Shown: positions 12,252-44,093, numbered from the stretch's first letter. The stretch is DNA of 64,000 nt from Pelagibacterium sp. (GCF_048264985.1 NZ_JBLXCL010000009.1:3953-67952); one strand, 5' to 3'. Numbers and translations are program-made. Notes: generated from the letters alone by a model not told the origin.

Positions 12252-12289
12252 TTCGATTCCTCCATTGTCATTTTGATTGTGAAATCGGC

Positions 12290-14262: not shown

Positions 14263-14307
14263 TGTCAACGGTGTGCCGATGTGAAATGAGCGCGCTGGAG
14301 GGGGATA

Positions 14308-15339: not shown

Positions 15340-15364
15340 CCTCAAGGAGGGGCAAGATCACAAC

Positions 15365-22655: not shown

Positions 22656-23597
22656 ATGGCCGAGCCCATCCTGACATTTGATACCCTACTTGAGCCGATC
22701 GGCTCCGAACTTGCAGCGCACTATGAGTTGATTTCCGCTGACGACCCTCGGGTACAGGACCGACTGGCCGATTTTCGCATCGCCATGACCAATGGTGGGC
22801 TGGGGATGGAAAGTGCGTGGATCGAGAAACTTCCGAATCTTGAATTGATAGCGGTCAACGGCGTGGGCACCGACAGGATCGACCTCGATCTGTGCGCCTC
22901 GCGGTCGATCCACGTGGCCACCACACTCGGCGTGCTGACTGACGATGTCGCCGACATGGCGATGGGACTGGTGATCGCTGCGTTGCGCGAACTCGGCCAA
23001 GGACAGGATTTCGTGCGATCGGGGCAATGGGCGCAAGGCAAGAAAATGAAGCTGGCGCGGAGTTTGAAAGGGCGAAAGTTCGGCATAGTTGGACTGGGCG
23101 CCATCGGGCAGGCGATCGGGCAACGCGCCGAAGCTTTCAAATTCGATATCGGTTTCTGGAACCGCTCGGAAAAGTCTGTTGCAGGGTGGACGGCGTTTGG
23201 TTCACCAGCGGCACTTGCCACGTGGGCAGACGTCATCGTTGTTGCGGTGGCAGCCACACCGCAGACGCAAGGGATTATCGACAGGGATGTCATTGCCGCA
23301 TTGGGCAGCGATGGGTTTGTCGTCAACATCGCGCGCGGCAGTGTGATTGATGAAGCCGCTTTGCTCGACGCTCTTGAAGCAAAGGCGATTGCTGGGGCCG
23401 GGCTCGATGTTTTTCTCAATGAGCCTGTAATTGATAAGCGCTTCCTCAACCTCGACAACGTTTTTGTCGTCCCTCACCAGGGTAGCGCCACGATTGAGAC
23501 CCGGACGCGTATGGCGCAAACGGTCAAGGACAATATCGACGCCTATTGCGCAGGCGAAGTGCCACCCACTTCCGTTACGGCAAAACACTTCAGCTAA
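22656..23597 (+). CDS. D-isomer-specific 2-hydroxyacid dehydrogenase (2-ketogluconate/hydroxypyruvate reductase-like)
   Basis: NGVGTD, GIVGLGAIG, NIARGSV, GLDVFLNEP, PHQGSAT. Confidence 0.9.
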   Translation: MAEPILTFDTLLEPIGSELAAHYELISADDPRVQDRLADFRIAMTNGGLGMESAWIEKLPNLELIAVNGVGTDRIDLDLCASRSIHVATTLGVLTDDVADMAMGLVIAALRELGQGQDFVRSGQWAQGKKMKLARSLKGRKFGIVGLGAIGQAIGQRAEAFKFDIGFWNRSEKSVAGWTAFGSPAALATWADVIVVAVAATPQTQGIIDRDVIAALGSDGFVVNIARGSVIDEAALLDALEAKAIAGAGLDVFLNEPVIDKRFLNLDNVFVVPHQGSATIETRTRMAQTVKDNIDAYCAGEVPPTSVTAKHFS

Positions 23598-25800: not shown

Positions 25801-25814
25801 TTGACAATCGTCAA
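25801..25814. promoter_or_regulatory. FixK/FNR-type box in the glmS / T1SS divergent region
   Basis: TTGAC-AATC-GTCAA, with perfectly palindromic arms and 14-bp geometry. Confidence 0.7.
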
Positions 25815-25875
25815 GGTCACAGCAGCGCTGTGTGGGAAAACCGATTTCACGCGCGTGTTTTCTGGAACCAAGATC

Positions 25876-27594: not shown

Positions 27595-28907
27595 GCGCCA
27601 TCGACATTGAATATGTAGCTGCACGGAGCCTTGGTCGGCACGCATTGCTCGGCTCGGTTGCCATGATCTCGCTGGTCGGGCGCCTTACGTTCTGGGCGGC
27701 GGTCACTCCAATCGCGGGCGCCGTTGTTGCTGGCGGCAGCGTCGTGGTCGATGGCGGCGTGAGGCGTGTGCAGCATCAAGAAGGCGGCATCGTCAAGGAA
27801 ATCCTTGTGCACAATGATGCCGAAGTCTTGGCCGGCGAAACGCTCGTCGTGCTCGATGGTACACCGGTTGTGGCCAATATGGCTGTGATCGAGGCCCAAT
27901 TGGGCGAGGCCTATATCCGGCAGGCTCGGCTCATGGCAGAGGCCGCGGACTCGACAATCATGGCATGGCCGACCCAACTCGACACCATGCCCGAAATCGA
28001 GCGAAACCGTTTGCTGTTTGCTGCCGAAGATCGCTTAAGAGCCTCGCGGGCAGCAGCGCTTTCGACCCAGGTTGCTCAATTGGGGGAACAGATCGTCCAG
28101 CTCGAGAACCAGGTTGCCGGCTTGGACGCTCAACGCAGCGCGGTGATTGCCCAGACCGAAATCTTGGACGAGCAGCTTGAACGGCTCTCTGCACTTCTGG
28201 CTCAAGGGTTGATCGAGGCGAGCAGGGTCAGCGATTTGCGGCGACAAGTCGCGCAGCTTGACGGAGAAGGCGCCCGTATCACAACCGAGATCGCGCGCGG
28301 AAACGCAGCAACGGCTGAGCGCCGGCTGCAGATATCCCAGGTGCAAGAATCCTATCAAAGTGAAGTACTTGGGCAGTTGCAAGAAACCGGACAGCAGATT
28401 TCCGAGCTGGAGCAGCAAAGGGTAGCAGCTCAGGACCGGCTCGACAGGCTGATCATACGCGCGCCGATCTCAGGCGTCGTGCATCAGATGCAGGTGGCAA
28501 CGCTCGGCGGTATCGCGGGTGCGGGCGAAACGCTGATGCAGATCGTGCCGCTCGACGATGAAATCATGGTCGATGTGCGTATCAATCCACTCGACATCGA
28601 CAAACTCGCCACAGAACAGACGGTGACTTTGCGGCTCTCAAGCTTCAATTCCCGCTCGACGCCGGAACTTGACGGGTTGGTGGACAGGATATCGCCCGAC
28701 CTCACCCGCGACTCAGCTTCCGGCACGCAGTTTTACGTTGTCCGGGTCCGCCTGCCCGCAGAGGAACTGGACAAACTGCCGGAGACGGCGCGGCTCATCC
28801 CCGGTATGCCAGTCGAAGCGTTTTTCGCAACCGGCGAGAAGACAGTGCTAAGTTATCTCGCCAGTCCCGTAGTGGACCAGCTGGCGTTGGCGTTCCGAGA
28901 GGATTGA
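27591..28907 (+). CDS. Type I secretion membrane fusion protein, HlyD/PrtE family
   Basis: VQHQEGGIVKEILV, long coiled coil, IRAPISGVV, LIPGMPVEAF, TVLSYL. Confidence 0.93.
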   Translation: MSAIDIEYVAARSLGRHALLGSVAMISLVGRLTFWAAVTPIAGAVVAGGSVVVDGGVRRVQHQEGGIVKEILVHNDAEVLAGETLVVLDGTPVVANMAVIEAQLGEAYIRQARLMAEAADSTIMAWPTQLDTMPEIERNRLLFAAEDRLRASRAAALSTQVAQLGEQIVQLENQVAGLDAQRSAVIAQTEILDEQLERLSALLAQGLIEASRVSDLRRQVAQLDGEGARITTEIARGNAATAERRLQISQVQESYQSEVLGQLQETGQQISELEQQRVAAQDRLDRLIIRAPISGVVHQMQVATLGGIAGAGETLMQIVPLDDEIMVDVRINPLDIDKLATEQTVTLRLSSFNSRSTPELDGLVDRISPDLTRDSASGTQFYVVRVRLPAEELDKLPETARLIPGMPVEAFFATGEKTVLSYLASPVVDQLALAFRED

Positions 28908-29006: not shown

Positions 29007-32000
29007 CTAAAGGATGAAGTCGACTGCGGTCAGATCGATCAGGCCGGACAGCTCGATGCTGAAGTCTGCGATCTGGTCGCCATTGACGTCGGCGGTGACG
29101 ATCGTCTTGTCACCTTCAGTGCCATCAATATCTTCAAACATGAAGCTCAGTTGTCCACGGACGCCGGTAAATGCAGCTCCAGCTCCTGCCAGGAATATGA
29201 AGGCCTGATTGCCTCCCACACCAGCGGCGGCATCGATTATCGAGAGGTCGATAACGTCTTCGCCCTGGGTAAAGTCTGTGATCACGTCGCGACCCAGACT
29301 GTCTGGTCTTGAATGGGCGATATTGCGAAACACAAAGACATCGGAGCCTTCCCCGCCGACCAAGACGTCCTTGCCGCCTCTGCCGTCAAGGACATCATTG
29401 CCCCTGCCGCCTGAAATCATGTTTGCTGCCCCTGAACCAATGATTGTGTCGTTGCCAGAGCCACCGATGATGTTTTCGATCGATCTCAGGCTATCGGTTC
29501 CAGTCTGTGTGCTGGTGGCCGAGTTTGCATTGACTGTAACATCGGCCGAGATGCGTGAGAGATCCAGCACGTCGCTGCCGCTTCCACCGATATAGGTGTC
29601 ATTGCCGTCATCGAGTGTCGCCACGAATATATCGTCGCCGGCATTGCCATAGACCGTGTCATCGCCAGCGTCGCCAAACATGATGTCGTCTCCGCCGCCG
29701 CCCTGGATCGTGTCGTTTCCTGCACCCCCGTGATAGAGATCGGAGGACGAGCCTTTGGGTAGTGTGTCGGCTGAATCGGAACCCACAACATCATTCATGC
29801 CCACAAGATCGAGCGTCGCGCTGGCGAGATCGGTCCTGTCCGCTGTTGCAATCGAATAGGTGAACGTGACATCGGTATCGTCATTGAGAGCTGGAATGAA
29901 CAGCCACGTTCCATCGCCATTGTCGGTCAGTTTGCCCGATGAAGCGACAAGACCAACCACGGCAAAGGCCATGCCGGTGTAGGCCGTGCCGGCCAGGTCA
30001 CGTGAAGTGATGGTGCGCGTCATGTCTTCGTTGAGCGGTGTCAGCGCTACCGGCGGCAAGACATCGGTCACTGCTGCCGTTGCCGATGAGGCTACGCTCT
30101 CCAGCGTACCTCCGACATCGGTGTAGCTCACGATAACCCGGACGAGGGCAAGTGCGTCTTCGTCTGTCAATTTATAGGTGGCGTCGGTGGCGCCGTTGAT
30201 GTTGACGAACCCTGTACCGGTGTCTCGCTGCCATTGATAATTGAGTGTTCCCAAGCCATCGGGATCGGCCAGAGAAGCTACATTGGCACTCAGGGTCTGG
30301 TTTTCGACGGCATTGCCTACGATAGTCACGTCGCCAGTTGGTGCATCGTTACTGTTTGACACGACCACAGAGATTTCCTTGGCAAACACCAGTTCTCCAT
30401 CGGTTGCGGTGATCGTCAAAGCGACCGATGGTTCGGTCTCGAAATCGAACGCGACGCCGGCCTTGCGGTAAAGTGCGCCATCATTGGGATCGATTTCAAA
30501 CCTGTCGTCGGAGACCGTGAGAATGTTCTGGCGCTGGCTGTCGTCGAAATTTGGATCAATGACAAGAAGATCAGCCACTTTAACCCTGTCGAGCAACAGT
30601 TCGGGCACAGCGGCCAAATTGGAGAGCACGATATCGGTCGGTGCAAGGTTTTGGGCCTCCATCCGCACTAGGCTCACACTGTGATCGCCCAGCCCGACAA
30701 GCCGGAGCGTCATGATGCCATCGACAAGGCTGACGATTTCGGCGCCCGAGACGAGGAACTGACTATTGGCCATATCGGCCAGATCGATCGACACCAGGCC
30801 CTCGCCGTTCATCGTGAAAGCAAGGTTGACGCCGTCACCTTCCAGCGTGATCAGCTGCATGCGGGCGCCGATCGAGGTGATGTGGGTGACGTCGGCCTGG
30901 GCGAGACCAAGCTTAATCTCGTAGGTGCCACCATTTGCATCAAGAAAGACTGAATTGCCATCATAGGCATACCAATTGGTAACTGCCGAAATGGTCTGCG
31001 ATCCCAAGGAGTCGAGATTGACGGCAAACGTGCCCAGCGTGCCCGACTGCGGCGTTGCGGTGACGGTAATCGTGTCGCCGTTGACCGCGTAGGTTAGTTC
31101 CGTCTTCTCGAAAGTCGCTATCCGGGCGGCGAGGTCTGCGAGCGTTACAAACTCGGAGCCTGCGGCATGGGCTGCACCGAGCAATTCGGTGAACATGGCG
31201 AGGGTATAGGGCGATGAGCCCGTGCCCTCTATATCCCAGGATGTGACACCGTAATCATGCCAAGGCCAGACCACGATCGGCAGGTCGGAATTGATCGTCA
31301 GGTCGTTGAATTCGGCAATCCATTTCGCGGCCGCTTGTTCAGCGGTCAGCCCCAACCAACCAAGAAGCGTGAAATCGAAGCTCATATTGGGCGCTATGTA
31401 GACTTTATCGGTATCGGTGGGCGAGAGGTAGCCCAGAGCACCGGGATAACCCGCGCCGACCATGGACGCGCCGCCGGTCAGATAATCGTAATACTGAATA
31501 ATCTGGCGCGCCGTCTCCAGCGATTCGGGCATGCCGGGCACCGCCGCGCCGCCCACCACAATCCCAAGATTATCTTCTATGACGTGACGCGACGTCTCGA
31601 ACTGGAACTTGAACGATGCCTCCAGAATGGCCTTCGATACGGGATCGAGAGCCATCGGGTCGGGCGCTAACAGGGCCGATTGCAGTGTCGCGTTGATCTG
31701 GGCGACGCTCATCTGGGCCAGCGCGTCGATGACCGACTGATCGGCGTCGTCGCGCATGCAGTACGGACAGAAACATGCCGAGGGATTATCGAGCATAGCC
31801 GCATAGCCCGCGATGCGCTGATCGAGGATATCCTGGGTCACTTCGTCGGGCAGCAATAAGTTGGTATCGAACGGGTGCGAATAGGAGTGCGACCCGATTT
31901 CGTTGCCCATTGCCAGAAGCTGTTGGTAATAGGAGGACGAAATGAACCAGTTTGTATCCTGATCGGGGCTATAGAGCCCGACATTGACGTAGTAGGAGCC

Positions 32001-35000
32001 GACAAAATTGTAGTCGGTTTTCCACTGATCGAGAATTGGCATCATGGCGTCGTAGATACCGTTATCGACGTCGTACGTCTCCTGGGACTGGTCCATATCG
32101 TTGCGCGAGGCAACAATAGCGTTATCTCTGCTCATGGACAGCGAGACCTTCGGCCCGTCAATTGACTGGGTGACCCAGTCGATCGACTGCCCGAGCAGAT
32201 TGTTATCGGCCAGCATGCCCTCGGTGGCGAAATGAACGTTGCGTCCGCCGGTAGTGGTCGAGATTACAGCGTCGTGGCTCGTGCCGTTGACGACCTGCTG
32301 AGCGATGACAGTGCCGGTGCCCGCAGCGACAGTCGAGAAGTACGAAGTCGCAGCGCCTGTATAGGTATGAATCGCGCCTCCGCCGTATCCGGCGGTGATC
32401 TCGTGGTTACCTGTCGCGACAAGATTGACGTCGACACCGTTTTCTCCGCCCGTGCGCGTCAAACCCAGGAGAGTCTGCATGCGTTCATAGGGGTTCGCCG
32501 ACAACGCATCGCCATCGGCAGCATTGGTCATGAAATCGCCAGCCGTGATTATCGGCACGTCGTAGTCATAAACAAGTTGGTTGAGCGTAGCGGCGATATC
32601 GGCGTAATTTTCCGGGGCGTTTCTGAAAGAAGGGAACACGAGGGCCTTGTACTGCGCCATGAGCTCAAGATCGGTAAGATCGGCTTCCCCGATCAAATCG
32701 AAGGGAATACCCGCGCTCATTGCCTGGCTTTGTGCAGCCATGACCAGCTGTGAATAGGCCATCTCCGAGAAATAGGCGCTGGCGGTTGTTTGCGAATAGA
32801 CGATGGCGATCTTGTAGTTTGCCGACGCCAGTGGCGGCAGGCTGGCGGGGTCCGTAATGGTGTATGCCGGCTGGGTATAGTCGGCTGGCAGATGCACGAC
32901 GTCATTGACGTCCGCCATAAGCCCGATCTTGTTGAGCTCGGTCCCAAGCAGCGATTTGGGAATGGCAAGCTCGATCGACTTGCCGTCGGGCCCAAGTGCA
33001 AAGTCGATTTCGGCCACCAGCGTTTCCCCGGCGTTTCCGGTATAGAGGCGTGCGCGGCCGTCATTGTCGATATTGACGTTGAATTCCGCACCAACGGCCC
33101 ATCCCCAGACCAGATGGCCAGTTGACGTATTGCCGTCAGTGTTGATCCAGAATGTCGTGTTCGGACCGATCTCGACTGCGCTTTTAAGAGCGACGACAAA
33201 CGCGTCATTGGCGACCGTACCGAACAGCTCATAACCCTCAATAAGCGTGGTTGGCGTTTCAATGCGCTGGCTTTGCGTCCATTCGCTTAGGATGCCATCA
33301 AATGCGCTTACCGGCGGCAGGCCAATGGTGTAACCTCCATAGCCGTAGTTGTTGGGGAGGAAAACCGTGTCGTTGACATCGCTAAGTACCGCAATTTCTT
33401 CGATGCCCGTGCCCAGAAGGTCTTTTGGAAGCGCGAATTCGAGCGTGGTCCCGTCAGCGCCAAAAGCATGGTCCAGATCGGCTACAAATATTTCCCCAGC
33501 AGCGCCTGAATAGAGCCGGGCTATGCCATCCGCGCCGATGTTAACGTTGAATTCTGCACCACCTGCCCAGCCCCAAATCTGATGACCCGTGCCCGAGCTG
33601 CCATCAGTGTTGATCCAGAATGTTGTGTTCGGGCCAATTGGTTGGGCGCTCTTGAGTGCAACGACGAATTGTTCGGAATCGACGCGGCCGTAAAGCTCAT
33701 AGCCCGCGATGCCGGTGCCTTCCCCTTCGAGCCGCTGGTCGGGCGTCCATTCGGTCAGCAGGCCGTCAAAGCTCGAACTGGGCGTTTCAATCAACAGGTA
33801 ACCACCGGTGCCGTAGTTGGCGGGGAGGAATACTGAATCGTTGATATCGGCCAAAATCTGTACTGATTGCTCGAAGCCGAGAGTCTGCTTGGGAACTGAA
33901 AACTCGATGCTCAATCCATCAGCTGAGATTGCAAAATCAATGTCGGAGACGAAGGTTTCGCCAGCGGCACCGGAGTAAAGCCGGGCAATGCCGTTGCTGT
34001 CGATATTGACGTTGAACTCGGCTCCGGCTGCCCAGCCGAACACCTGATGTCCCGTTGCGGTATTGCCGTCGGTATTGAGCCAGAACGTGGAACCCGGTCC
34101 TATCGGCTGGGCACTGGAAAGTGCAAAAACGACCTGGTCTGGGTCGACACGGCCATACATAGCGTAGCCATCGACACCGCCCAATTGGGTGTCGAGCCTT
34201 TCGTCTTCGGTCCATTCCGACAGCACGCCGTCAAAAGAGGAAGCCGGTTCTTCGACCAACGTGTAACCGCCGGTGCCGTAGTTGGCGGGGAGGAATACTG
34301 AATCGTTGATATCGGCGAGAATTTGGACTGATTGATCGAATCCAAGCGTTTGTTTGGACACTGAAAACTCGATGCTCATTCCGTTTGGAGCAAGCGCGAA
34401 GTCGACGTCGGAAACAAAAATTTCACCGGCGGCACCAGAATAGAGGCGGGCGATCCCGTCGCCGTCGATGTTGACGTTGAATTCGGCACCCGCTGCCCAT
34501 CCGAATATCTGGTGTCCGGTTGCGGTATTGCCGTCGGTGTTGAGCCAGAACGTCGAACCTGGCCCGATTGGCTGGGCGCTCGACAATGCGAAAACGACCT
34601 CGTCGGATTCGACGCGCCCGTACATTGCATAGCCATCGACGACGCCCAACTGGGTGTCGAGCCGCTGTTCTTCAGTCCACTCGGCCAACAGACCGTCAAA
34701 TGAGCTGGATGAAGGCTGGGTGACGAGGTAGCCACCTTCCGCGTAAGACGAGGGCAGAAATACCGAATTGTTGATATCGGCATAGACCGTGAGTGAGGTT
34801 ACGGCCAAGCCGACCAGAGCCTGCGGCAATTTCATTTCCAGGATCGTCCCCCCGGCGCCGAGCAGGTACTCGATTTCCGCGACAAGGGTCGCACCTTCCG
34901 AACCGGAATAGAGTCTGGCGATCCCATCGGTGCCGAAATTGATGTTAAACTCCGCGCCAACGGCCCAATCCCAGACTTTGTGCCCAGTTTCGCTATCGGC

Positions 35001-35180
35001 ATCGGTGTTGAGCCAGAACGTCGTGTTGGGACCAATGGGCTCGGCACTTTCCAGTGCGATCAGGTAAGCCCCATCCTCGTACCGGCCGAACAGCGCATAG
35101 CCGTCGACGAGGGTTTCGGGCCGCTCGAGACGATCGTCCGGGGACCAGTCAGTGAGAGTTCCGTCAAGGATGATGGTCAT
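29007..35180 (-). CDS. 2057-aa T1SS-secreted RTX protein: five ~155-aa repeats, GATase-like/DUF2194-like domain, CE4/NodB-like polysaccharide deacetylase, cadherin/Ig-like domains, Ca-binding GGxGxD repeats and a serralysin-type C-terminal domain
   Basis: No signal peptide. Deacetylase motifs SRNDMDQ (~32089-32108), GNEIGSHSYSHP (~31873-31905) and PWHDY (~31251-31268). Cadherin-like APTDI...FDFETEPS...ITATDG. Multiple GGAGND/GGSGND/GGRGND nonapeptides and a C-terminal ADFSIELSG...DFIL. Confidence 0.85.
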   Translation of the reverse strand: MTIILDGTLTDWSPDDRLERPETLVDGYALFGRYEDGAYLIALESAEPIGPNTTFWLNTDADSETGHKVWDWAVGAEFNINFGTDGIARLYSGSEGATLVAEIEYLLGAGGTILEMKLPQALVGLAVTSLTVYADINNSVFLPSSYAEGGYLVTQPSSSSFDGLLAEWTEEQRLDTQLGVVDGYAMYGRVESDEVVFALSSAQPIGPGSTFWLNTDGNTATGHQIFGWAAGAEFNVNIDGDGIARLYSGAAGEIFVSDVDFALAPNGMSIEFSVSKQTLGFDQSVQILADINDSVFLPANYGTGGYTLVEEPASSFDGVLSEWTEDERLDTQLGGVDGYAMYGRVDPDQVVFALSSAQPIGPGSTFWLNTDGNTATGHQVFGWAAGAEFNVNIDSNGIARLYSGAAGETFVSDIDFAISADGLSIEFSVPKQTLGFEQSVQILADINDSVFLPANYGTGGYLLIETPSSSFDGLLTEWTPDQRLEGEGTGIAGYELYGRVDSEQFVVALKSAQPIGPNTTFWINTDGSSGTGHQIWGWAGGAEFNVNIGADGIARLYSGAAGEIFVADLDHAFGADGTTLEFALPKDLLGTGIEEIAVLSDVNDTVFLPNNYGYGGYTIGLPPVSAFDGILSEWTQSQRIETPTTLIEGYELFGTVANDAFVVALKSAVEIGPNTTFWINTDGNTSTGHLVWGWAVGAEFNVNIDNDGRARLYTGNAGETLVAEIDFALGPDGKSIELAIPKSLLGTELNKIGLMADVNDVVHLPADYTQPAYTITDPASLPPLASANYKIAIVYSQTTASAYFSEMAYSQLVMAAQSQAMSAGIPFDLIGEADLTDLELMAQYKALVFPSFRNAPENYADIAATLNQLVYDYDVPIITAGDFMTNAADGDALSANPYERMQTLLGLTRTGGENGVDVNLVATGNHEITAGYGGGAIHTYTGAATSYFSTVAAGTGTVIAQQVVNGTSHDAVISTTTGGRNVHFATEGMLADNNLLGQSIDWVTQSIDGPKVSLSMSRDNAIVASRNDMDQSQETYDVDNGIYDAMMPILDQWKTDYNFVGSYYVNVGLYSPDQDTNWFISSSYYQQLLAMGNEIGSHSYSHPFDTNLLLPDEVTQDILDQRIAGYAAMLDNPSACFCPYCMRDDADQSVIDALAQMSVAQINATLQSALLAPDPMALDPVSKAILEASFKFQFETSRHVIEDNLGIVVGGAAVPGMPESLETARQIIQYYDYLTGGASMVGAGYPGALGYLSPTDTDKVYIAPNMSFDFTLLGWLGLTAEQAAAKWIAEFNDLTINSDLPIVVWPWHDYGVTSWDIEGTGSSPYTLAMFTELLGAAHAAGSEFVTLADLAARIATFEKTELTYAVNGDTITVTATPQSGTLGTFAVNLDSLGSQTISAVTNWYAYDGNSVFLDANGGTYEIKLGLAQADVTHITSIGARMQLITLEGDGVNLAFTMNGEGLVSIDLADMANSQFLVSGAEIVSLVDGIMTLRLVGLGDHSVSLVRMEAQNLAPTDIVLSNLAAVPELLLDRVKVADLLVIDPNFDDSQRQNILTVSDDRFEIDPNDGALYRKAGVAFDFETEPSVALTITATDGELVFAKEISVVVSNSNDAPTGDVTIVGNAVENQTLSANVASLADPDGLGTLNYQWQRDTGTGFVNINGATDATYKLTDEDALALVRVIVSYTDVGGTLESVASSATAAVTDVLPPVALTPLNEDMTRTITSRDLAGTAYTGMAFAVVGLVASSGKLTDNGDGTWLFIPALNDDTDVTFTYSIATADRTDLASATLDLVGMNDVVGSDSADTLPKGSSSDLYHGGAGNDTIQGGGGDDIMFGDAGDDTVYGNAGDDIFVATLDDGNDTYIGGSGSDVLDLSRISADVTVNANSATSTQTGTDSLRSIENIIGGSGNDTIIGSGAANMISGGRGNDVLDGRGGKDVLVGGEGSDVFVFRNIAHSRPDSLGRDVITDFTQGEDVIDLSIIDAAAGVGGNQAFIFLAGAGAAFTGVRGQLSFMFEDIDGTEGDKTIVTADVNGDQIADFSIELSGLIDLTAVDFIL
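32840..35180 (-). repeat. Five tandem intragenic repeats of about 465 bp (155-156 aa)
   Basis: FDG motifs start at 34700, 34235, 33770 and 33302. An identical 47-bp stretch occurs at 34270-34316 and 33805-33851. Shared motifs are DGxLxEW, FWxNTDG..TG, GAEFNVN and ARLYSG. Confidence 0.92.
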
Positions 35181-35854
35181 AGGAGTGTCTCCTGTGCAAA
35201 GGGGGCCGGGGCCCTTTCAGATGACCGCCACTCAGCGGTTTCATCCATTGCTATTGGTGATTTTAGGCGATTGAGGCGTTCCAAATCGTGTTGACTGGCC
35301 AGCCCGTATGCTCTGCCCAACTCGATAGTGGCGCGCTCACCGGTGCGGTCGCCCTCAAGTCGATACAGTCCGATCAAACGGCGGTAGGCTGGAATGGAGG
35401 GTTCCCTTGCAAAGATCTGGGCAAGGATGCGAGCTTCGTTGCCATAAGCGTTATCGCCCCGGTAGAGATCAACAAGCATGGGCCGCGCCCAGTCGCTTTG
35501 AGGGCGAGTTGCGATCTCGTCTTCAAGCAGGCGAGTAAGAAGGCTTGTCTCTGCCTGGGTCTGATAGAGCCCGGCGAGAGAATATGCTTCGAAGGGGTTG
35601 AGGCGTGTCGTTTCGCGCTTTGTCTCATAGAGTTGTACAGCTTCGCCGATCCGACCCTGTGAAAGCAGAACCTGAGCCTTCTCTTCGGTGTTGGGCAGCA
35701 TTGCGAAGGCAGCAATGGTGGTCATTGCCACAATGATCGCAACGAAGATTTGCGTGCGGTCGGGGGAGTCTATGCGCGACATGAAGCCCAAAGGCGCGAA
35801 GCCGGTACGTTGGAACGGCCGGTATGTGGACTTGTGGTCAACGAGAGTGTGCAT
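35177..35854 (-). CDS. Membrane-anchored TPR-like protein (PelB-TPR-like, no beta-barrel); alternative start 35782
   Basis: One hydrophobic helix (IFVAIIVAMTTIAAFAML) followed by helical repeats (LLSQGRIGEAVQLYE; LVDLYR; YRRLIGLYR). Its stop overlaps the RTX ATG (ATGA coupling). Confidence 0.6.
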   Translation of the reverse strand: MHTLVDHKSTYRPFQRTGFAPLGFMSRIDSPDRTQIFVAIIVAMTTIAAFAMLPNTEEKAQVLLSQGRIGEAVQLYETKRETTRLNPFEAYSLAGLYQTQAETSLLTRLLEDEIATRPQSDWARPMLVDLYRGDNAYGNEARILAQIFAREPSIPAYRRLIGLYRLEGDRTGERATIELGRAYGLASQHDLERLNRLKSPIAMDETAEWRSSERAPAPFAQETLL

Positions 35855-36749
35855 TGTCGAGCTCCCTATCGCCGATGAATAGCAATACTCCCAGGGTTGC
35901 CGCGTCTTCGCGGGCCTGGGCGACATCTGAGGATGCGCTTAGATATTCGGAGACAAATACAGGCTTGCCCTCGGCTGTCAGACGACTGAGAAGCTCCAGG
36001 GAAGCGCGTACTGTGCCCAGTCTGTTTCGCTGATTGTCATGTTCGGCGCCAAACAGAAGATCTTCCTTGGCCAGTCCGTCGATTGTTCGGCGATATGAGG
36101 GGGTTGCCAGCAGCTCTTCGCCGTTCTGTGGCATTATGATGAAGTCGGGATCCTTGGCGCGTGCGTAGATGGCGAGGGCGGTGACGAAATTCACCATCTC
36201 GCTTTCGCGTTGCGCCCTTTTGAGTTGGGGGTCGGGGCGTTCGAACGCGTCGACGCGATCGAGATATACTCCGTCGAAGCCTGCTGCCATGATCTGGTCG
36301 AGATAACTGGTGGGCTCGCCAAAGATGATTGCCTGCCAATCGGGATCCCAAAAGCGGACGTCATAATTGCCTTCCCATTCGGGGTTGGCTGCGAACAGCC
36401 ATGTCGGCCTGTCTTGCGCCCAATCGTCTTGCCAATAGAAGCGGTAGTCTTCCGCTTCGCCGATCGAAAGATAGGATAGGACGATCCGTCGCGACCCGTC
36501 AGGCTTTGTCCTAAGGTTGGCGATCTCGGTGGCTGAAAAGGTCTGGGCCGCAGTTCCGTTGCGTGAATAGTCGATCACCACCAGGTCATAGTTGCTGGCG
36601 GCAAGGACATGCAGATCAATGCCCTGAAGTTGGTAGGTCCATGATCCAACTCCAGCCAGTGCCGAAACTGCCGCGTTACTCGCCTGTGGCGAGAGCATAA
36701 GCGGAAATGCTGCCAGGACGGCAGCCAGTCCAGCAATGCGTATACCCAT
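35838..36749 (-). CDS. GH114-like / TM1410-MJ1477 family endo-alpha-1,4-polygalactosaminidase (PelA hydrolase analogue) with Sec signal peptide
   Basis: WTYQLQ, YDLVVID, SYLSIGEAEDYRFYW, VRFWDPDWQ, GFDGVYLDRVD (putative catalytic Asp), QNGEEL, FVSEY (putative catalytic Glu). Confidence 0.85.
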   Translation of the reverse strand: MGIRIAGLAAVLAAFPLMLSPQASNAAVSALAGVGSWTYQLQGIDLHVLAASNYDLVVIDYSRNGTAAQTFSATEIANLRTKPDGSRRIVLSYLSIGEAEDYRFYWQDDWAQDRPTWLFAANPEWEGNYDVRFWDPDWQAIIFGEPTSYLDQIMAAGFDGVYLDRVDAFERPDPQLKRAQRESEMVNFVTALAIYARAKDPDFIIMPQNGEELLATPSYRRTIDGLAKEDLLFGAEHDNQRNRLGTVRASLELLSRLTAEGKPVFVSEYLSASSDVAQAREDAATLGVLLFIGDRELDNAHSR

Positions 36750-36823: not shown

Positions 36824-36837
36824 TTGACATTCATCAA
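36824..36837. promoter_or_regulatory. FixK/FNR-type box in the GH114 / pelE divergent region
   Basis: TTGAC-ATTC-ATCAA. If centred at -41.5, the -10 positions read CATTAT (36860-36865, +) and TAGTGT (36801-36796, -). Confidence 0.75.
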
Positions 36838-36924: not shown

Positions 36925-37626
36925 ATGGTACTGTCCCTCAATTCCTCGCTCGGGGCGCAACCTGCCCCTTTTACCGCCAAGCCGGCCATCAAGGCGCTGT
37001 TTGCCGGTCTGAAAACCGTGGTGTTTGCCACCGAGGCTGTCGGCATCGTCTTTTTGGCGCTCGGCCATATCGACCTGGCGATGGCCATGTTCTTGCATCT
37101 TGGTCTTTGTCTCGTGATGCTTGGCGTTATCCTTTTTGTCGAACGCAAGAATATCTATTCGGGCGACCTGCAAGCATTTGCCCTGCAGGTGATGGTTGCC
37201 GGCCCGTTCGGCGCGGCTTCCGCGATGATCGATGAACAGCTTTCGTCCCGCGTGCGCGCCGAACGCCTTGAGCGTTGGTACAACACGATCGCGCCGGTGC
37301 CAGTGCCCGCCGTGACCCTCGCCGACCGCATTCTTGACGATCAGGTGGTCCGGCCAGCGGCACGGCTACCAAAATCTGTCGACCGGCTGATCATGTCAGG
37401 GTCCATGCGGGAGAAGCAGGCGCTTTTTGCTTCGATCGTTGCCGACGGGCCGGTAGACGGCGGTAATCTCATCGAAAAAGCACTGCGCAGCCGCGATCAG
37501 CGGGTCCGGGTGCAAGCGGCGGCCGTTTCAGCGCTGTTCCGCTCCAAGGTGCGCACCAGCGCCGGACACCGTCATCAGGCGAGCATCGTGGTGCCCGCCA
37601 ACGATGCAACAACACCTGCAGCATAG
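36925..37626 (+). CDS. PelE-like inner-membrane protein
   Basis: Two or three TM helices, then a HEAT-like segment (GSMREKQALF...IEKALRSRDQRVRVQAAA); directly upstream of pelF. Confidence 0.6.
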   Translation: MVLSLNSSLGAQPAPFTAKPAIKALFAGLKTVVFATEAVGIVFLALGHIDLAMAMFLHLGLCLVMLGVILFVERKNIYSGDLQAFALQVMVAGPFGAASAMIDEQLSSRVRAERLERWYNTIAPVPVPAVTLADRILDDQVVRPAARLPKSVDRLIMSGSMREKQALFASIVADGPVDGGNLIEKALRSRDQRVRVQAAAVSALFRSKVRTSAGHRHQASIVVPANDATTPAA

Positions 37627-37638: not shown

Positions 37639-39168
37639 ATGGAAGTGCCCAATTGGTTTGCGCCCGCGGGACGCCGTTTCGAGCCTGAAGCCGATGTGTG
37701 TCTGATCGCTGAAGGGTGCTACCCCTATGTTTCAGGTGGCGTATCCAACTGGATCGACTGGCTGATCAGGACGCATCCTGAACTGACGTTCTCTGTGCTG
37801 GCGATTCTGCCCAGCGCTCCTCAGACCGAGCCGCGCTATGAACGGCCCGACAACCTCAAGGCAATTCATCACCTGTTGCTCGACGACAAGGGAAAGGGAC
37901 AGCGTCGGGCCTGGCCGGCGATGACGCCGCAATGGTACGCCGATACGCTGACTGCCATCCTCGACCGCGGTGATGCGCAAGGCTTTCAGGCGCTTCTTGA
38001 AAAGCTTGGCCCGGAAAGCAGGCGGCCTTCGGTTTCGACATTGCTCGATTCCCGCCAAGCCTGGCAGGCCCTGTCTTCCGGTTATGCCCGCATGCCGCAA
38101 ACAGCTTTCATCTCATATTTCTGGGCTTGGCGGGCACTGGCTGGCGGACTGCTGCGCACTCTGGTCAGCCCACTTCCCAGCGCGCGGCTCTATCATTCGG
38201 TTTCCACCGGCTATGCGGGCCTGGTTGCTGCGCGGGCGGCACATGATACCGGCCGACCCGTCATGATCACCGAGCATGGTATTTATTCCAATGAACGGCG
38301 TGTCGAGATCCTGATGGCCGACTGGATCAAAAACAGCATCGATACCGGGCTCGATTTTGCCGATGAGCGTCACGATGTGCGCGACTTCTGGGCCGACGCT
38401 TTCGAGAGTTTTGCGCGGATCGCTTATAGCGCCGCAGATGATGTGATCGCGCTTTACGGCGATAACAACGCATTTCAGCAAGCGTTGGGCGCCGACAGCC
38501 GAAAGCTCACCGTTGTGCCCAATGGCGTTGACGTCGACAGGTTCGAGACGTTGCCCATGCGCCAGTCGACGCGGCCCACTCTGGCATTTATCGGGCGCGT
38601 TACGCCCATCAAGGACGTTCAGACGTTCATCGATGTGGCCGAACGGGCAGCATCAAAAGTTCCCGGTCTGCGGGCGCTTATCATCGGGCCCATGGATGAA
38701 GATCCGGATTACGCACAGAGCTGCGTCGACGCCGTCAAAGAGCGTGGGCTTGGAGATATCATCACGTTTACCGGTCCCGTCGATGTCCGCGACTATATGG
38801 CTGAAATCGATGTTCTCATGCTGACTTCGATTTCCGAGGCCCTGCCGTTGGTCATACTGGAGGCTGGCGCTTCGGGCGTGCCGTGTATTGCAACCGATGT
38901 TGGCGCGTGTCGCGAAATCCTCGGTTGTCCTGGCAGCCCTGGGCAAGCGGCGGTGGCTGGTGTTGGCGGCATTGTCGCTCCGGTGGGTGATGTCGGTTCT
39001 CTGGTTTCCGCCGCCGTGCATATTCTCACCAACCCCATGGCGCGGGAACGGATGGGATCATCGCTGCGCGAAAAGGTGCGGACCCAATACCGGTCTGACA
39101 CCATAGCATCGGCCTATACGAGACTTTACGGTCGTCATCTTTCCCAAATTGCCAAGAGTGAGGTCTAA
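37639..39168 (+). CDS. pelF: GT4 glycosyltransferase PelF (DUF3492 N-terminus)
   Basis: DVCLIAEGCYPYVSGGVSNW, YHSVSTGYAG, ITEHGIY..ER, FIGRVTPIKDV, SISEALPLVILEA (EX7E). Confidence 0.9.
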   Translation: MEVPNWFAPAGRRFEPEADVCLIAEGCYPYVSGGVSNWIDWLIRTHPELTFSVLAILPSAPQTEPRYERPDNLKAIHHLLLDDKGKGQRRAWPAMTPQWYADTLTAILDRGDAQGFQALLEKLGPESRRPSVSTLLDSRQAWQALSSGYARMPQTAFISYFWAWRALAGGLLRTLVSPLPSARLYHSVSTGYAGLVAARAAHDTGRPVMITEHGIYSNERRVEILMADWIKNSIDTGLDFADERHDVRDFWADAFESFARIAYSAADDVIALYGDNNAFQQALGADSRKLTVVPNGVDVDRFETLPMRQSTRPTLAFIGRVTPIKDVQTFIDVAERAASKVPGLRALIIGPMDEDPDYAQSCVDAVKERGLGDIITFTGPVDVRDYMAEIDVLMLTSISEALPLVILEAGASGVPCIATDVGACREILGCPGSPGQAAVAGVGGIVAPVGDVGSLVSAAVHILTNPMARERMGSSLREKVRTQYRSDTIASAYTRLYGRHLSQIAKSEV

Positions 39169-39171: not shown

Positions 39172-40566
39172 ATGGCCGGCATCGGATTTGCTCTCACCAA
39201 ACTGCGCAGCCAGAACAATCTGGCCGGACATTCCATGGCAACTGGCCATGCCATCATGGTCACTGCGGGACCGTGGATCGTGATAATGATCGGGCTGGCA
39301 CTGATCTCCTGGCTTGGCGCTCCATTGGTCGGGCTCGAGATGACCACGACGTTCAGGGTGCTGGTGATCTATTGTTTTGCCCTTTCCCTTGTCGTTACAG
39401 CGCCGATTGCGCTCGAGCTTAATCTGCGGGTTTCTGCTGAACTTTATGAGCGCCATTTCGACCGTGTTCATGGGATCTATATGGGCGCGCTCGGCGTAGC
39501 TGCCCTGATTACCGTCTTTCTTGCCTGGCTTCTGTTTTCCGTGATCATCGGGCTTGATATGCAAACGGCGACTGCCGCAACGTTCTGCGTATTGCAGGTT
39601 TCCTTGCTGTGGCTGACCATGTCGATGGTCGCTGCGATCCGGCAATATACGATCGTCACAACCGGCTTTACCATGGGGTTGAGCGTTTCGGTGGTGCTGG
39701 GACTATCTTTGGCCAGCCTTGGATATGGCGTTGCGGGTTTGCTGGCCGGATTTGGCGCAGGCCTGTTTCTGGCCTTCGCCATTTTGCATGGATTGATCGT
39801 GCAGACCTTTCCGGGACGGATCAAACCGCTGACCGAAAGCATTCGCGGGCTGATCGCGCACCCGATGCGTTCACGCACTTTCGTGATTGCCGGCCTGACC
39901 AGTGCGCTCGCCGTATGGATCGACAAGCTGGTGGTCTGGCAGTCATATGAAGGCACCGCCATTGCGCACGGCCTTATCCACGCGCCGCGATACGACGTTC
40001 CAATGTTTATCGCCTATCTTTCGATAGTGCCCCTGATGAGCATCGTTTCGATCTGGCTGGAAACTGACTTTTTCACTGCCTATCGGAAGTATCGCGACAT
40101 CGTTCATTCGGGCGGAACGCTGCGCCACATCGATGCCCAGCGCACTGCAATCACCTGGCAAACGACCAATACGATATTTTCGGCATTTGTCATCCAGATC
40201 ACAATCAGCCTTGTGCTCGCCCTCGCCGGACCGTGGATTGTGAGCCTGCTTGGGCTGGGCCTGGAAACCTTGCAGGTCTTGCGGCTCGCTTTGATCGGAG
40301 CCGCGTTTCACTTTCTCTTTCTCGCCTGTATCGGCGTCATCTTGTTCATGCAGTACGGCCGCGCCTACTTCCTGCTCCAGATCGTGTTTCTCGTCCTCAA
40401 TGGCGGGCTGACCTATCTGCTGCTTTCCAACCCGGACGCCTTGGGGTTGGGCTACGTGATCGCGACCGGGGCAGCCGCCATCCTCGCTTACGGGGTGATG
40501 GTCAATACGCTCAAGGTGATGAACCGCCTCACATTTGTCGACAACAATCCGGCGGTTGCAGGCTAA
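39172..40566 (+). CDS. pelG: Pel exopolysaccharide transporter PelG
   Basis: MAGIGFALTKL N-terminus, TAGPW, WIDKLVVW, PRYDVPMFIAYLS, LETDFF; about 12 TM helices. Confidence 0.9.
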   Translation: MAGIGFALTKLRSQNNLAGHSMATGHAIMVTAGPWIVIMIGLALISWLGAPLVGLEMTTTFRVLVIYCFALSLVVTAPIALELNLRVSAELYERHFDRVHGIYMGALGVAALITVFLAWLLFSVIIGLDMQTATAATFCVLQVSLLWLTMSMVAAIRQYTIVTTGFTMGLSVSVVLGLSLASLGYGVAGLLAGFGAGLFLAFAILHGLIVQTFPGRIKPLTESIRGLIAHPMRSRTFVIAGLTSALAVWIDKLVVWQSYEGTAIAHGLIHAPRYDVPMFIAYLSIVPLMSIVSIWLETDFFTAYRKYRDIVHSGGTLRHIDAQRTAITWQTTNTIFSAFVIQITISLVLALAGPWIVSLLGLGLETLQVLRLALIGAAFHFLFLACIGVILFMQYGRAYFLLQIVFLVLNGGLTYLLLSNPDALGLGYVIATGAAAILAYGVMVNTLKVMNRLTFVDNNPAVAG

Positions 40567-40603
40567 CCCCCCGCAGCCGTCACCATAACTGAGGAAAATT
40601 GCA

Positions 40604-41140
40604 GTGAACGTACATGCTCAAAATACCGCCAGTCCAAGAATGCTGCTGGGGGAAACCGGCAGCGGTCCTTCCAATCACTGGGTCGGCGTGGTTGAAGGCG
40701 CGGTTATGATTGGGGGTTTGTTTGCAGTTGAACGCTTGGGGTTGCTCGACCTCCAGATGCTGCCCATCCACCCATTGGTCCTTGCCGTTGCTCTTATCGC
40801 TGCCCAGTACGGAGCATCAGGCGGCATCATGGCTGCAGCGATGGCCACGGCTCTTGCTCTATTGGGTGGCACCTTGCCTCAAAGAGTGATTGGCGAGGGA
40901 TATTTCGAATATCTCGCTGCTGTCTGGACCACGCCATTGGCCTGGTTGGTCATTGCGGTAACGGTGGGAATAATTTCGGACGGGCACAGGCGCTTGCTGC
41001 AGCGGTCCGAGCTGGCTCTGTTTGAAGTCAAGAAAGAGCGCGATCTGATTGCGGCGCAATACGAGGCTTTGGCCGCCCGTGCCAAGCGGCTTGAACGCCG
41101 TGTGGCGGGGATTGAAGGCCCGGCTTCTGCACTCAAGTGA
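40604..41140 (+). CDS. PelD-like membrane protein consisting only of the N-terminal TM domain and coiled coil (no GAF/GGDEF)
   Basis: HPLVLAVALIAAQYGASGG, four TM helices, and a coiled coil ending ERDLIAAQYEALAARAKRLERRV; 178 aa. Confidence 0.55.
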   Translation: MNVHAQNTASPRMLLGETGSGPSNHWVGVVEGAVMIGGLFAVERLGLLDLQMLPIHPLVLAVALIAAQYGASGGIMAAAMATALALLGGTLPQRVIGEGYFEYLAAVWTTPLAWLVIAVTVGIISDGHRRLLQRSELALFEVKKERDLIAAQYEALAARAKRLERRVAGIEGPASALK

Positions 41141-41243
41141 AAACGGCGCAGCGTCAATATCGTAGAATCACTAGTGGAAGAACCGGAATTTATTAACAAA
41201 TGTTTAACGCCCATACTCCTGGCAACAGGGAAGGGACAAGCAA

Positions 41244-41891
41244 ATGTTGATGCATAAGGAGTTCTCCAATCCTACGACCATTGTCGGAGCCGCCGGGTAT
41301 CTGGGCCTTATTGGCAGTACCAAACTCGGCGGTACGACCCGGCATCGGGAAAAGGAACTGATCTATGCACAGGGGGATGAAGCCGGAGACATCTATATCG
41401 TCGAATATGGCTGTGTGCGCGTTTCGCGGATAACGCCAGAGGGGCGGCGCCTCGTGACCGGCTTTTACTTCGCCGGTCAAGTTTTCGGTTTCGAGACGGG
41501 TGGCGAGCGGCAATGCTATGCGGAAACGCTTGAATATTCCGGCACGCGCAGATTGCAACTGGATGACAGGGATCTGGCCAACCCCCTGATTGCCGAAATG
41601 CTGTTTGGCTATCTCGAGAGCATACACCAGCATCTTCTGGTTCTCGGTACACAGAATTCAATTGAACGGGTCGCTGCGTTTCTTGTGGGGATCGCCGACA
41701 GGCGCGAAGATGGTAGCAACAAGGCTCGATTGCCGATGTCGCGCTGCGATATCGCAGATCATCTTGGACTGACACTGGAAACAGTGTCGCGGGCAATTCA
41801 CCGCCTACAGGTCCTCAAGCTGATAACGCTCGTCGGCGCACGTGAAGTCATATTGCTCGATAGAACCGCCCTGATTGAACTGGGCGCATAA
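41244..41891 (+). CDS. fixK: Crp/Fnr-family regulator, FixK type
   Basis: IYAQGDEA, GRRLVTGFYFAGQVFG, ERVAAFL, and recognition helix LPMSRCDIADHLGLTLETVSR (FNR-type E..SR); no N-terminal Fe-S cysteine cluster. Confidence 0.88.
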   Translation: MLMHKEFSNPTTIVGAAGYLGLIGSTKLGGTTRHREKELIYAQGDEAGDIYIVEYGCVRVSRITPEGRRLVTGFYFAGQVFGFETGGERQCYAETLEYSGTRRLQLDDRDLANPLIAEMLFGYLESIHQHLLVLGTQNSIERVAAFLVGIADRREDGSNKARLPMSRCDIADHLGLTLETVSRAIHRLQVLKLITLVGAREVILLDRTALIELGA

Positions 41892-42013: not shown

Positions 42014-42646
42014 TCAATCTCCGCCCTGATACTGGTCGGAACCTTGAACCGCAGTCCTGACCAGCTCGGCAAGACTGTGGGCGTGCATCTTGGTCATGAT
42101 CGTTGCGCGATAAACTTCGACTGTGCGTGGGCTAAGACCCAGATCTCTGGCGATTTCCTTGTTCGCCAACCCGTCAACTACGCCGTCAAGAACCTGTCGT
42201 TCGCGCGCGCTGAGGGAGTCCAGTTTCGCCCGCGCTGCCTGCCGAAGGCTGCGAACGTGGTTTTCTTCCTGTGCTGCAGCGCATACCCGGGCGAGTGTGG
42301 CGAGTATCGTTGCTTCGCTGAACGGCTTTTCGATGAAATCGCTTGCCCCCGCCTTCATCGCATCGACGGCTGCAAGCACATCGCCATGACCAGTGACCAC
42401 GACAACCGGCAGCGCGTGTCCTTCGGCCCGCAGGTGATGCAGCAGCTCTATCCCACTCATTCCGGGCATGCGCAGGTCGGTAATCAAGCAAGCATCATCG
42501 AGATTGTCCACGGCGTCGAGAAACTCGCCGGCTGAAGCATATTTGCGCGAGCGCCAGCCAGAGGCCGCGAGCATGAACGAAAGCGACTGACGCACCGGTT
42601 CTTCATCGTCGACGATGTGGATCAGGAAGTCACTGGGCATGGGCAT
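42014..42646 (-). CDS. fixJ: FixJ-type response regulator (REC + LuxR HTH); alternative start 42640
   Basis: IHIVDDEEPVRQSL, ITDLRMPGMSG, AVDAMKAGASDFIEKPF, LSARERQVL...NKEIARDLGLSPRTVEVYRA. Confidence 0.9.
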   Translation of the reverse strand: MPMPSDFLIHIVDDEEPVRQSLSFMLAASGWRSRKYASAGEFLDAVDNLDDACLITDLRMPGMSGIELLHHLRAEGHALPVVVVTGHGDVLAAVDAMKAGASDFIEKPFSEATILATLARVCAAAQEENHVRSLRQAARAKLDSLSARERQVLDGVVDGLANKEIARDLGLSPRTVEVYRATIMTKMHAHSLAELVRTAVQGSDQYQGGD

Positions 42647-44093
42647 CAATCTCTCGGTCAACCAAGGGAAGGGTGAATGTAAAAACTGTTTCCTTGCCCG
42701 TTATCGAGCGGGCCTCTATCGCACCTCCATGTGCTTCGATAATGCGTTTTGAAATCGAGAGGCCAACCCCCATGCCTCTTCGTTTCGTCGATACGAATGC
42801 CTTGAATATTTCCTCGCCGAATTCTGGTGGAATGCCATGCCCGGTGTCGCTGAGTTCGATGCGGGCAAACCTGTCGTTCTGGCGCGTCCGTATAGTGATG
42901 ATCTTGCGTTCGCTGGCCTGCACCGCATCGGCAGCATTGCGCAAGAGATTGACGATTACCTGCTGGATCTGGGTGGGGTTACCTAAAGCCTCTAATGGCC
43001 CGGGCGAGAGGTTCAGCTCGATGAGGATGCCATCTTCTCTGGTGCCGGCCAGCGCCAGCGCCATTGCACCTTCGATCAGTGTGTTGACGTCGACGATCTC
43101 TTTGTCGATTTCGCCCTGTGCCATGAAAATTCGCAGGTGATGGATAATGTCGCCCGCACGCAGGGCCTGGGTTGCGGCAGCGGCAAGAGATTCGCGTAGC
43201 GCTGGAAGCATGGCGGGGTCAAAGAGCTCAAGCATGCGCTTGGCGCCTTGTACATAATTGCTGATCGCCGAAAGCGGTTGGTTGATTTCATGGGCAAGCG
43301 CTGAAGCCATTTCGCCCATTTCGCTCATTCTGGAGAGCCGAGCCAGTTCTGCCTCGGTCTGCTCGAGCCGCGTTGCTGCCCGTTCTCGCTCAGTCATGTC
43401 GCGCGCAAAAGCAATGAAAAGAAGGCCCTCACCGGTGGTGATCCTGACGACGTCGATGCTCATGGGAAACGTGGTGCCATCGCTACGCTTGCCGCGCAGC
43501 AGGCGGTTGCGTCCGATGAAGCGGGCAAAGCCCGTTGATGGGTATTCGGCCGTGCTGTTGCGGTCAGGCAAATGAGGCGATGCCATAAGGATATGCACGT
43601 TGCGAGTCATGACGACTTTCTCGCGATACCCAAACAGCCGTTCTGCAGCGGCGTTGAAAGACACGATCTCGCCGCTCGGCTTGCTCGCTATCGTTGCATC
43701 AGAAATGGTGTCCAGGATGGCCTGCAGATAGCTTTCTCGTCGTAGTAGCAGCCGGGTGGCCATTAGCGCCTTTATGCGCTCTTCCCGCAGCACGCCTCCC
43801 AGCCAGGCAATCCCAAAACCCACACCGGCAAAAAGGACAAGGTCAGGTCCCTGGGACGTACTCTCATCTACTGTGAAGAAATAGACCAGCGGCAGAGCGA
43901 GGACCATCGTGAACACGCCGGGCGCCATTCCGCCCATGCCGGCAGCAAGCAATATTGCCAGAGCGAAGAACAGTCCGCTAAACGAGGATGTGAAAACCGG
44001 GGTAATAGCAAGCTTTATGGTACTAACAAGGATTAGTCCTGCCAGCCCGACCAAGTATGCGAATATAATGTCCTTCGGCAGCCCCATAACCAC
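42630..44093 (-). CDS. fixL: FixL-like membrane PAS sensor histidine kinase
   Basis: N-terminal TM domain, PAS (FNAAAERLFGY...GKRSDGTTFPM), H-box LAHEINQPL, NLLRNA, DTGHGI, GMGVGLSIS. The heme-proximal His position is not conserved. Confidence 0.78.
   Translation of the reverse strand: MVMGLPKDIIFAYLVGLAGLILVSTIKLAITPVFTSSFSGLFFALAILLAAGMGGMAPGVFTMVLALPLVYFFTVDESTSQGPDLVLFAGVGFGIAWLGGVLREERIKALMATRLLLRRESYLQAILDTISDATIASKPSGEIVSFNAAAERLFGYREKVVMTRNVHILMASPHLPDRNSTAEYPSTGFARFIGRNRLLRGKRSDGTTFPMSIDVVRITTGEGLLFIAFARDMTERERAATRLEQTEAELARLSRMSEMGEMASALAHEINQPLSAISNYVQGAKRMLELFDPAMLPALRESLAAAATQALRAGDIIHHLRIFMAQGEIDKEIVDVNTLIEGAMALALAGTREDGILIELNLSPGPLEALGNPTQIQQVIVNLLRNAADAVQASERKIITIRTRQNDRFARIELSDTGHGIPPEFGEEIFKAFVSTKRRGMGVGLSISKRIIEAHGGAIEARSITGKETVFTFTLPLVDREIDAHAQ

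Follow-up and report, generated by a model that had tools for sequence, protein, structure and literature searches.

The window analysed here, a stretch of 64,000 nucleotides of Pelagibacterium sp. DNA, carries a compact group of pel-like genes bordered on one side by a divergent glycoside hydrolase gene and on the other by regulatory genes of the Fix type. The hydrolase belongs to the GH114 family and resembles the hydrolase of PelA (35838..36749, minus strand; PF03537, E 1.8e-28; TIGR01370, 253.7 bits). On the plus strand follow the genes for a pelE-like membrane protein of 233 amino acids (36925..37626; the start is placed as in the relatives, the longest ORF beginning at 36736), for the glycosyltransferase pelF (37639..39168; 509 aa; NF038011 with 370.9 bits against a cut-off of 100, DUF3492 and GT4 domains) and for pelG (39172..40566; 464 aa; PF16933, E 9.8e-112, 375 bits). 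Next comes the subject of this study, a short pelD (40604..41140, plus strand), identified by its ORF, phmmer searches, a profile of long PelDs and dN/dS, which encodes 178 aa of PelD-family membrane module and coiled coil without GAF or GGDEF domain. The gene order on the plus strand is completed by a FixK-like Crp/FNR regulator (41244..41891; cNMP_binding and HTH_Crp_2), which starts 103 nt 3′ of the short pelD stop and scores 132 bits against the NCBIfam FixK model, below its cut-off of 300. Beyond it, on the minus strand, lie a fixJ-like response regulator (42014-42661; Response_reg and GerE in Pfam) and a fixL-like PAS histidine kinase (42630-44093; PAS, HisKA and HATPase_c in Pfam). The position of pelD is permuted, 3′ of pelG and not 5′ of pelE. 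The pelE-like protein has no match in Pfam and is homologous to the proteins in the pelE position of two other loci of the order (L013 and L015); no gene for PelB or PelC is found in the locus. The GH114 gene is a conserved partner in all short-PelD loci, with a gene for a small TPR-like protein behind it. Further upstream in the window lies a gene for a 2057-aa RTX/cadherin-like protein (29007-35180, minus strand), in which a Pfam scan detects only RTX, Peptidase_M10_C and Cadherin_5, together with the ABC and HlyD type I secretion genes that belong with it (25801-28907, plus strand); in the relatives, too, these genes are conserved beside the pel-like genes.

The short pelD comprises 178 codons, opens with GTG and closes with TGA. 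A Shine-Dalgarno-like GAGGA (40591..40595, plus strand) lies 8 nt 5′ of the GTG, inside the spacer that separates the start from the pelG stop by 37 nt. This spacer measures 22-39 nt in all seven loci compared. No terminator-like site was found between pelG, short pelD and fixK, and read-through from pelG via short pelD into fixK is possible, as judged from the nucleotide sequence.

Hydropathy and the AF2 model of the protein (mean pLDDT 73.8) place helices at residues 22-44, 57-87 (kinked at GASGG) and 100-167, behind 21 disordered residues N-terminal to TM1; together they describe four membrane spans, the last of which continues into a cytoplasmic helix of about 40 residues. The four-helix membrane domain covers residues ~22-127 (40667..40984, plus strand), delimited by hydropathy, the AF2 model and the residues shared with longer PelDs. 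It is followed by the cytoplasmic coiled-coil helix at residues ~128-170 (40985..41113, plus strand), which belongs to the AF2 helix 100-167 (pLDDT 86-94) and displays a heptad pattern with a/d positions 139/142/146/149/153/156/160/163/167/170; I149, Y153, L156, A160, L163, V167 and I170 are kept across the relatives. The coiled coil ends in a conserved R-x-K/R-R/K-L-E-R-R-x-A-G, and the protein terminates nine residues past the L-E-R-R-x-A-G motif, which in the long forms is directly followed by the GAF domain. A Foldseek search of the AF2 model against the PDB yielded nothing at E below 0.4, and to our knowledge no structure of a PelD membrane domain has been solved. The short PelD has no match in Pfam or NCBIfam. 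The PelD membrane domain has been described as DUF4118 (PMC7890745), and weak matches to this family (PF13493) occur in 5 of 15 members of the short family, the best at a sub-threshold E of 0.0012, with none in the target itself. The homologue from P. halotolerans, the species of locus L001, is titled 'Histidine kinase' in UniRef; unlike the KdpD-type sensor kinases with a DUF4118 domain, however, the short PelD is devoid of kinase domains.

PelD, a subunit of the synthase of a biofilm sugar, is the standard case of a degenerate GGDEF protein serving as a c-di-GMP receptor, and in P. aeruginosa and B. cereus the binding of c-di-GMP by its GAF and degenerate GGDEF domains licenses polymerisation. 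The P. aeruginosa protein (PA3061), a member of class I with structures of its cytoplasmic part (4DMZ/4DN0 and 4EUV), is among the closest known counterparts of the short form. An exhaustive phmmer search of 1.84 billion representative proteins with the 178-aa sequence returned 523 matches at E<=1e-3. Close homologues of 174-180 aa with 77-84% identity and the same synteny are present in other Pelagibacterium genomes and in metagenomes; together with the 523 matches they place the ORF far beyond chance. The nearest matches are short proteins of 158-233 aa. Several hundred longer ones (340-610 aa) form the next tier, and the query matches them over its full length within their first ~180 residues (E 1e-15 to 1e-9). 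These longer relatives carry GAF_3 and, in one case, a recognisable GGDEF remnant. Searches of the PDB sequences with the short PelD, or with one long homologue alone, returned nothing; only a profile built from 26 long forms of ~450 aa (A3) reached PelD, with the P. aeruginosa protein as its best match (4EUV, 4EU0, 4DMZ/4DN0; E 2.4e-6) and the GAF and GGDEF parts aligned. Run against the six-frame translation of the organism's own genome, the same profile recovers the short pelD ORF at E 3.6e-33 over profile positions 26-166 of 459. Its other matches there are three canonical GGDEF-domain genes on contig C1, which align with only the GGDEF part, and no second PelD was found in this six-frame search.

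The short pelD product is a real PelD relative on the strength of these sequence comparisons. Among the hallmarks of the family it has the four-helix membrane domain, the juxtamembrane coiled coil and an operon shared with pelE-like, pelF and pelG genes, and it has neither the central GAF domain nor the degenerate GGDEF domain with its RxxD I-site. The residues common to the short, mid (TM+GAF) and long (TM+GAF+GGDEF) clades are E31, H56-P57, Q68-Y69-G70, G74, P92, P111, W114, G122, L163-E164 and A168. Peculiar to the short clade are two invariant residues, P54 and R159, as well as a cluster of basic residues (161-162/165-166) that is absent from the long forms, and at the cytoplasmic exit of TM4 the short clade reads G-I-I-T/S-D where other PelDs read G-E-L-R. 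An earlier note on this DNA had described a PelD-like protein of 178 aa, with a TM domain and a coiled coil, ending in a clean stop and placed after pelG. The ORF, the hydropathy and the AF2 model confirm the description, and the assignment to PelD, formerly a matter of resemblance, is right and now backed by phmmer and profile statistics.

A gene of this size invites the suspicion that it is a recent truncation, or a pseudogene, left behind when a full-length pelD lost its 3′ half upon insertion of fixK-fixJ-fixL. The stop codon of short pelD is only 103 nt away from the start of fixK, and the canonical PelDs of other Alphaproteobacteria measure at least 454 aa, as one would expect if the 3′ half had been lost; against this, the length of 174-180 aa is kept across seven species. 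More distant short forms (P0012, P0013 and P0014; 35-42% identity) reside in loci (L017, L019 and L020) with the same order, in which the TPR and GH114 genes diverge from pelE-like, pelF, pelG and short pelD, while the genes that follow 3′ are HSP20, an opposite-strand Crp-family gene, or a 40-aa ORF and then TctA, and not fixK. Because these distant loci share the arrangement and differ in their downstream genes, the short form predates the fixK junction of this window. A maximum-likelihood tree built on the module common to 161 proteins groups the 19 genuine short forms in one deep clade (SH-aLRT 99), apart from the mid and long clades. It is also telling that the protein stops nine residues past the A-G that precedes the GAF domain in the long forms, and that the long-PelD profile detects no GAF or GGDEF remnant at the locus.

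The substitution pattern points in the same direction. Pairwise dN/dS values for short pelD range from 0.085 to 0.127, with dS between the window and its relatives near saturation (1.4-1.6) and the L001-L004 pair (dS 0.91, omega 0.127) being more reliable; for comparison, the values are 0.04-0.13 for pelF and pelG, 0.15-0.20 for the pelE-like gene and 0.08-0.10 for fixK. Selection on short pelD is as strong as on pelF, and a dN/dS of about 0.1 is at odds with a decaying gene. In a survey of 18 species genomes of the genus, short pelD occurs in seven, exactly the seven that possess pelG and always adjacent to it, and is absent from all 11 genomes without pelG. The earlier note had asked whether homologous loci keep the short form under purifying selection, and they do, with dN/dS of 0.09-0.13. 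Its suggestion that the gene was truncated when the fix cassette arrived is refuted by the monophyletic clade, the differing downstream genes, the dN/dS values and the lack of a remnant; the close homologues are short as well, and full-length forms broken at the fixK junction are not seen among them. Recent truncation is thus a highly improbable origin for this gene.

Outside the genus, short forms are rare. Among 301 evenly drawn genomes of the order, five contain any homologue, the organism's own included; in three of the five the homologue sits in a frame of 373-398 aa, all within the TM+GAF clade and with the GAF domain recognised by Pfam in the two that were checked (L013), and the fifth genome (L015) encodes a TM-only PelD of at most 260 aa that falls into the mid clade. 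Among 401 genomes of the class, the short form is confined to the organism's own genome, and 11 others carry the module in frames of 463-896 aa; the gene checked in one of these 11 encodes a 454-aa TM+GAF protein. The long and mid-length relatives are found in pel-type surroundings: in L007 the gene stands last in a series of GH114 and TPR genes, in L013 it lies directly 5′ of pelE-like, pelF and pelG, in L025 it comes after two PelB-like TPR genes and is followed by an MCP gene, a 384-aa gene and pelF, and in L026 pelG lies downstream of it on the same strand.

In none of the published PelD classes (I-IV) is the membrane or the GAF domain missing, and the GGDEF-less class IV has been described as exclusive to streptococci (PMC7890745, PMC12345266, PMC7112168). 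A membrane-only PelD is not described in the literature on PelD and DUF4118 or on Pelagibacterium and pel genes; such a form adds a new architecture to a known family without constituting a new kind of system. Like the P. aeruginosa protein, the short PelD consists of a four-helix membrane domain followed by a coiled-coil helix and is encoded together with pelE, pelF and pelG, and by analogy a role in an inner-membrane PelDEFG complex would be expected for it. Unlike that protein, it has 178 aa instead of roughly 455, has neither GAF nor the degenerate GGDEF domain that bears the RxxD I-site, and thus no known c-di-GMP site, and is encoded after pelG. The loss of GGDEF is shared with class IV PelD of streptococci such as S. 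intermedius, whose pel operon still makes polymer under regulation that is presumed to be independent of c-di-GMP (PMC7890745, PMC12345266). Class IV PelD, however, is composed of a degenerate SDR, DUF4118 and GAF domains, and the short PelD has neither SDR nor GAF; moreover, streptococci with class IV PelD have no c-di-GMP, whereas the host here is a Gram-negative with 21 GGDEF genes. A shortened PelD is also known from S. thermophilus JIM8232, where a transposon has left TM+GAF only and the biofilm still depends on the pel locus (PMC7112168). That truncation is specific to one strain and removed the N-terminal SDR part while retaining GAF, in contrast to the short PelD, which is conserved, selected and clade-wide. 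Closer to home, the mid PelDs of Hyphomicrobiales (L013, L014, L016) and the TM-only form of L015 have the same membrane module in loci with pelF and pelG, but belong to another clade, mostly include GAF and, where checked (L013 and L015), are encoded 5′ of the pelE-like gene and not after pelG.

The absence of the receptor domains extends beyond the gene itself. Pfam detects no GAF, GGDEF or PilZ domain in the proteins of the locus, and no GGDEF or PilZ domain on the whole 86.9-kb contig C9, which agrees with the earlier observation that the locus is devoid of an RxxD-bearing domain. Elsewhere in the genome there are 21 GGDEF and 3 PilZ matches, so that c-di-GMP signalling does exist in this organism. 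PF16963 (PelD_GGDEF) has no match in the genome, a result to be read alongside the control genomes, which also gave none. A split PelD, with its GAF-GGDEF half encoded elsewhere, was considered and rejected, as the other profile matches are the three canonical GGDEF genes, aligned in the GGDEF part only and without GAF.

With c-di-GMP signalling present in the cell, the synthase could still be gated by the nucleotide through another receptor. Such a receptor could be a site that has escaped recognition, on PelF, the pelE-like protein or the short PelD's arginine-rich C-terminal helix, or else a protein encoded elsewhere that acts in trans. We give this reading a modest chance. The genome, unlike those of the streptococci, has retained its 21 GGDEF and 3 PilZ genes, and the invariant R159 and the basic 161-162/165-166 cluster of the short clade are without counterpart in the long forms. 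Three observations weigh against it: neither the locus nor the 86.9-kb contig encodes a known c-di-GMP-binding domain, no GAF, GGDEF or PilZ protein is among the conserved neighbours in L017, L019 and L020, and a stand-alone PelD-like GAF-GGDEF half was not found in the genome. c-di-GMP could also act through transcription. The Pelagibacterium synthase itself is probably not directly switchable by c-di-GMP.

The divergent region between the GH114 and pelE-like genes, 175 nt in length, may provide an alternative point of control. It contains a box of the FNR/FixK type, TTGACATTCATCAA (36824..36837, no strand assigned), a perfect TTGA-N6-TCAA whose centre is located 94.5 nt 5′ of the pelE-like start. 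The 64 kb hold three perfect boxes against 1.0 expected, and the same region holds a box also in the other Pelagibacterium loci L001-L004 and in L017, L019 and L020. By an estimate from the shuffle rate, the chance that a region of this length holds a box is about 0.002-0.007 for each lineage, and four independent lineages have it. The feature that would mark the pel operon as a member of an FNR/FixK-type regulon, a TTGA-N6-TCAA at promoter distance that is conserved in orthologous promoters, is present in the form of a predicted site. The two further perfect boxes of the window lie at 25801-25814 and 22845-22858, and one of them stands at the head of the type I secretion ABC-transporter ORF, beside the giant RTX protein.

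Candidate regulators are close at hand. Genes of the Crp/FNR family are encoded 3′ of short pelD in the window, in L001-L004, L005 and L006, and on the opposite strand in L019. The spacer between short pelD and fixK (41141..41243, plus strand) contains the blocks GTCAATAYCGTAG..TCACTA and CGGAATTTATTAACAAA, which are invariant in a four-locus alignment (window 41141-41243; L001 8526-8635; L004 8544-8646; L005 1175-1268). As the blocks are unchanged even in L005, where the short PelD is only 52% identical, they probably represent fixK's own promoter or operator, or a FixJ-type site. A direct pairing of the short PelD with the FixL-like kinase through homologous DUF4118-type membrane domains was also considered and rejected (hhalign probability 0.6%). 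L019, the most distant short-PelD locus with a long contig, has a different sensory set where FixLJK sits in the window: short pelD is followed there by two Crp-family genes, a receiver protein and a PAS-HWE histidine kinase (9703-14363).

In P. aeruginosa, PelF is recruited by an inner-membrane complex of PelD, PelE and PelG, whose assembly is not affected by c-di-GMP binding, and the linker between the TM and GAF domains of PelD is predicted to be a dimerising coiled coil (PMC8461298, reviewing Whitfield 2020 and Whitney 2012). Precisely these structural parts are present in the short PelD, namely the inner-membrane part of four DUF4118-like helices and the juxtamembrane coiled coil through which PelD presumably dimerises, and for this reason we propose that it is a scaffold subunit without the allosteric gate. 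By analogy with P. aeruginosa, it would assemble with the pelE-like protein and PelG into a PelD′E′FG complex and help to bring the soluble glycosyltransferase PelF to the membrane. Lacking an I-site, such a complex would have no direct c-di-GMP gate and would be active whenever it is made; the decision to produce polymer would therefore fall at transcription, where the FixK-like regulator, fed by the adjoining FixLJ-like pair, is predicted to act on the TTGA-N6-TCAA box between the GH114 and pelE-like genes. We consider it reasonably probable that the ORF encodes a functional, scaffold-only PelD of this kind, with no direct c-di-GMP gate and with transcriptional control of the FixK type, and this marine Pelagibacterium seems to control its Pel-like synthase at the promoter through an FNR/FixK-type regulator. 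The earlier note had offered a c-di-GMP-independent complex under Fix-type control as one of two possibilities; we infer that this is the better of the two and the best-supported reading overall, because no receptor domain is found in the locus or on the contig, the box is conserved and Crp/FNR genes are neighbours.

It is important to point out that a PelD without GAF is not automatically functional in other lineages, since aggregation was abolished in S. intermedius by a pelD stop codon that takes away the GAF domain (PMC12345266). Compensating changes may have arisen in the short clade, with P54, R159, the basic cluster and the TM4 exit as the candidates by sequence comparison. The same divergence can be read differently, namely as a sign that the PelD-derived membrane module has taken on another role, either as a small regulator linking the membrane complex to different partners or as an accessory that synthesis can do without. 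The move of the gene from before pelE to after pelG, the change of the cytoplasmic end of TM4 from G-E-L-R to G-I-I-T/S-D and the possibility, raised by Whitfield et al., that PelD is dispensable in streptococci (PMC7112168) fit such a role. It is hard to reconcile, however, with the perfect co-inheritance with pelG, to which the gene is translationally close-coupled, or with selection as strong as that on pelF, and no similarity to the membrane domain of the FixL-like kinase exists that would suggest a pairing. We regard another role as quite unlikely.

A bolder version of the scaffold reading would make the short form a fifth class of PelD, in which the synthase has been cut off from c-di-GMP and rewired to a switch of the FixLJ-FixK type, and in which the clade's own features constitute a new docking or ligand site. 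The site would comprise R159, K/R161, R/K162, R165 and R166 together with the altered TM4 exit and would replace the GAF-GGDEF gate; it might keep PelF active or recognise some signal that differs from the canonical I-site ligand. This is speculative and, in our judgement, unlikely.

For those who work on Pel and on c-di-GMP, the interest of the locus lies in a natural minimal PelD. A conserved and selected PelD reduced to membrane domain and coiled coil, in a Gram-negative that uses c-di-GMP, would amount to a separation-of-function allele supplied by nature. It delimits the smallest portion of PelD that the synthase would need and predicts that the synthase is 'on' by default. Combined with the conserved box, the short PelD suggests a Pel-like matrix that responds to oxygen, redox or another FixLJ-type input rather than to c-di-GMP.

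The wider family holds further variations. Gram-negative genomes of the same order encode a large clade of PelDs of 340-410 aa with membrane and GAF domains and without GGDEF, in loci that also hold pelF and pelG (L013 9640-10824; L014 9863-10969; L016 9240-10316), and Pel systems blind to c-di-GMP may accordingly be commoner than the literature states. A second, independent membrane-only PelD is encoded directly 5′ of pelE-like, pelF and pelG in L015 (9742-10524, minus strand), in an 88% complete genome from another family of the order. Lastly, in an alphaproteobacterial pel cluster (L025), a methyl-accepting chemotaxis protein with sCache_2-HAMP-MCPsignal architecture is encoded directly 3′ of a full-length pelD (14530-16362).
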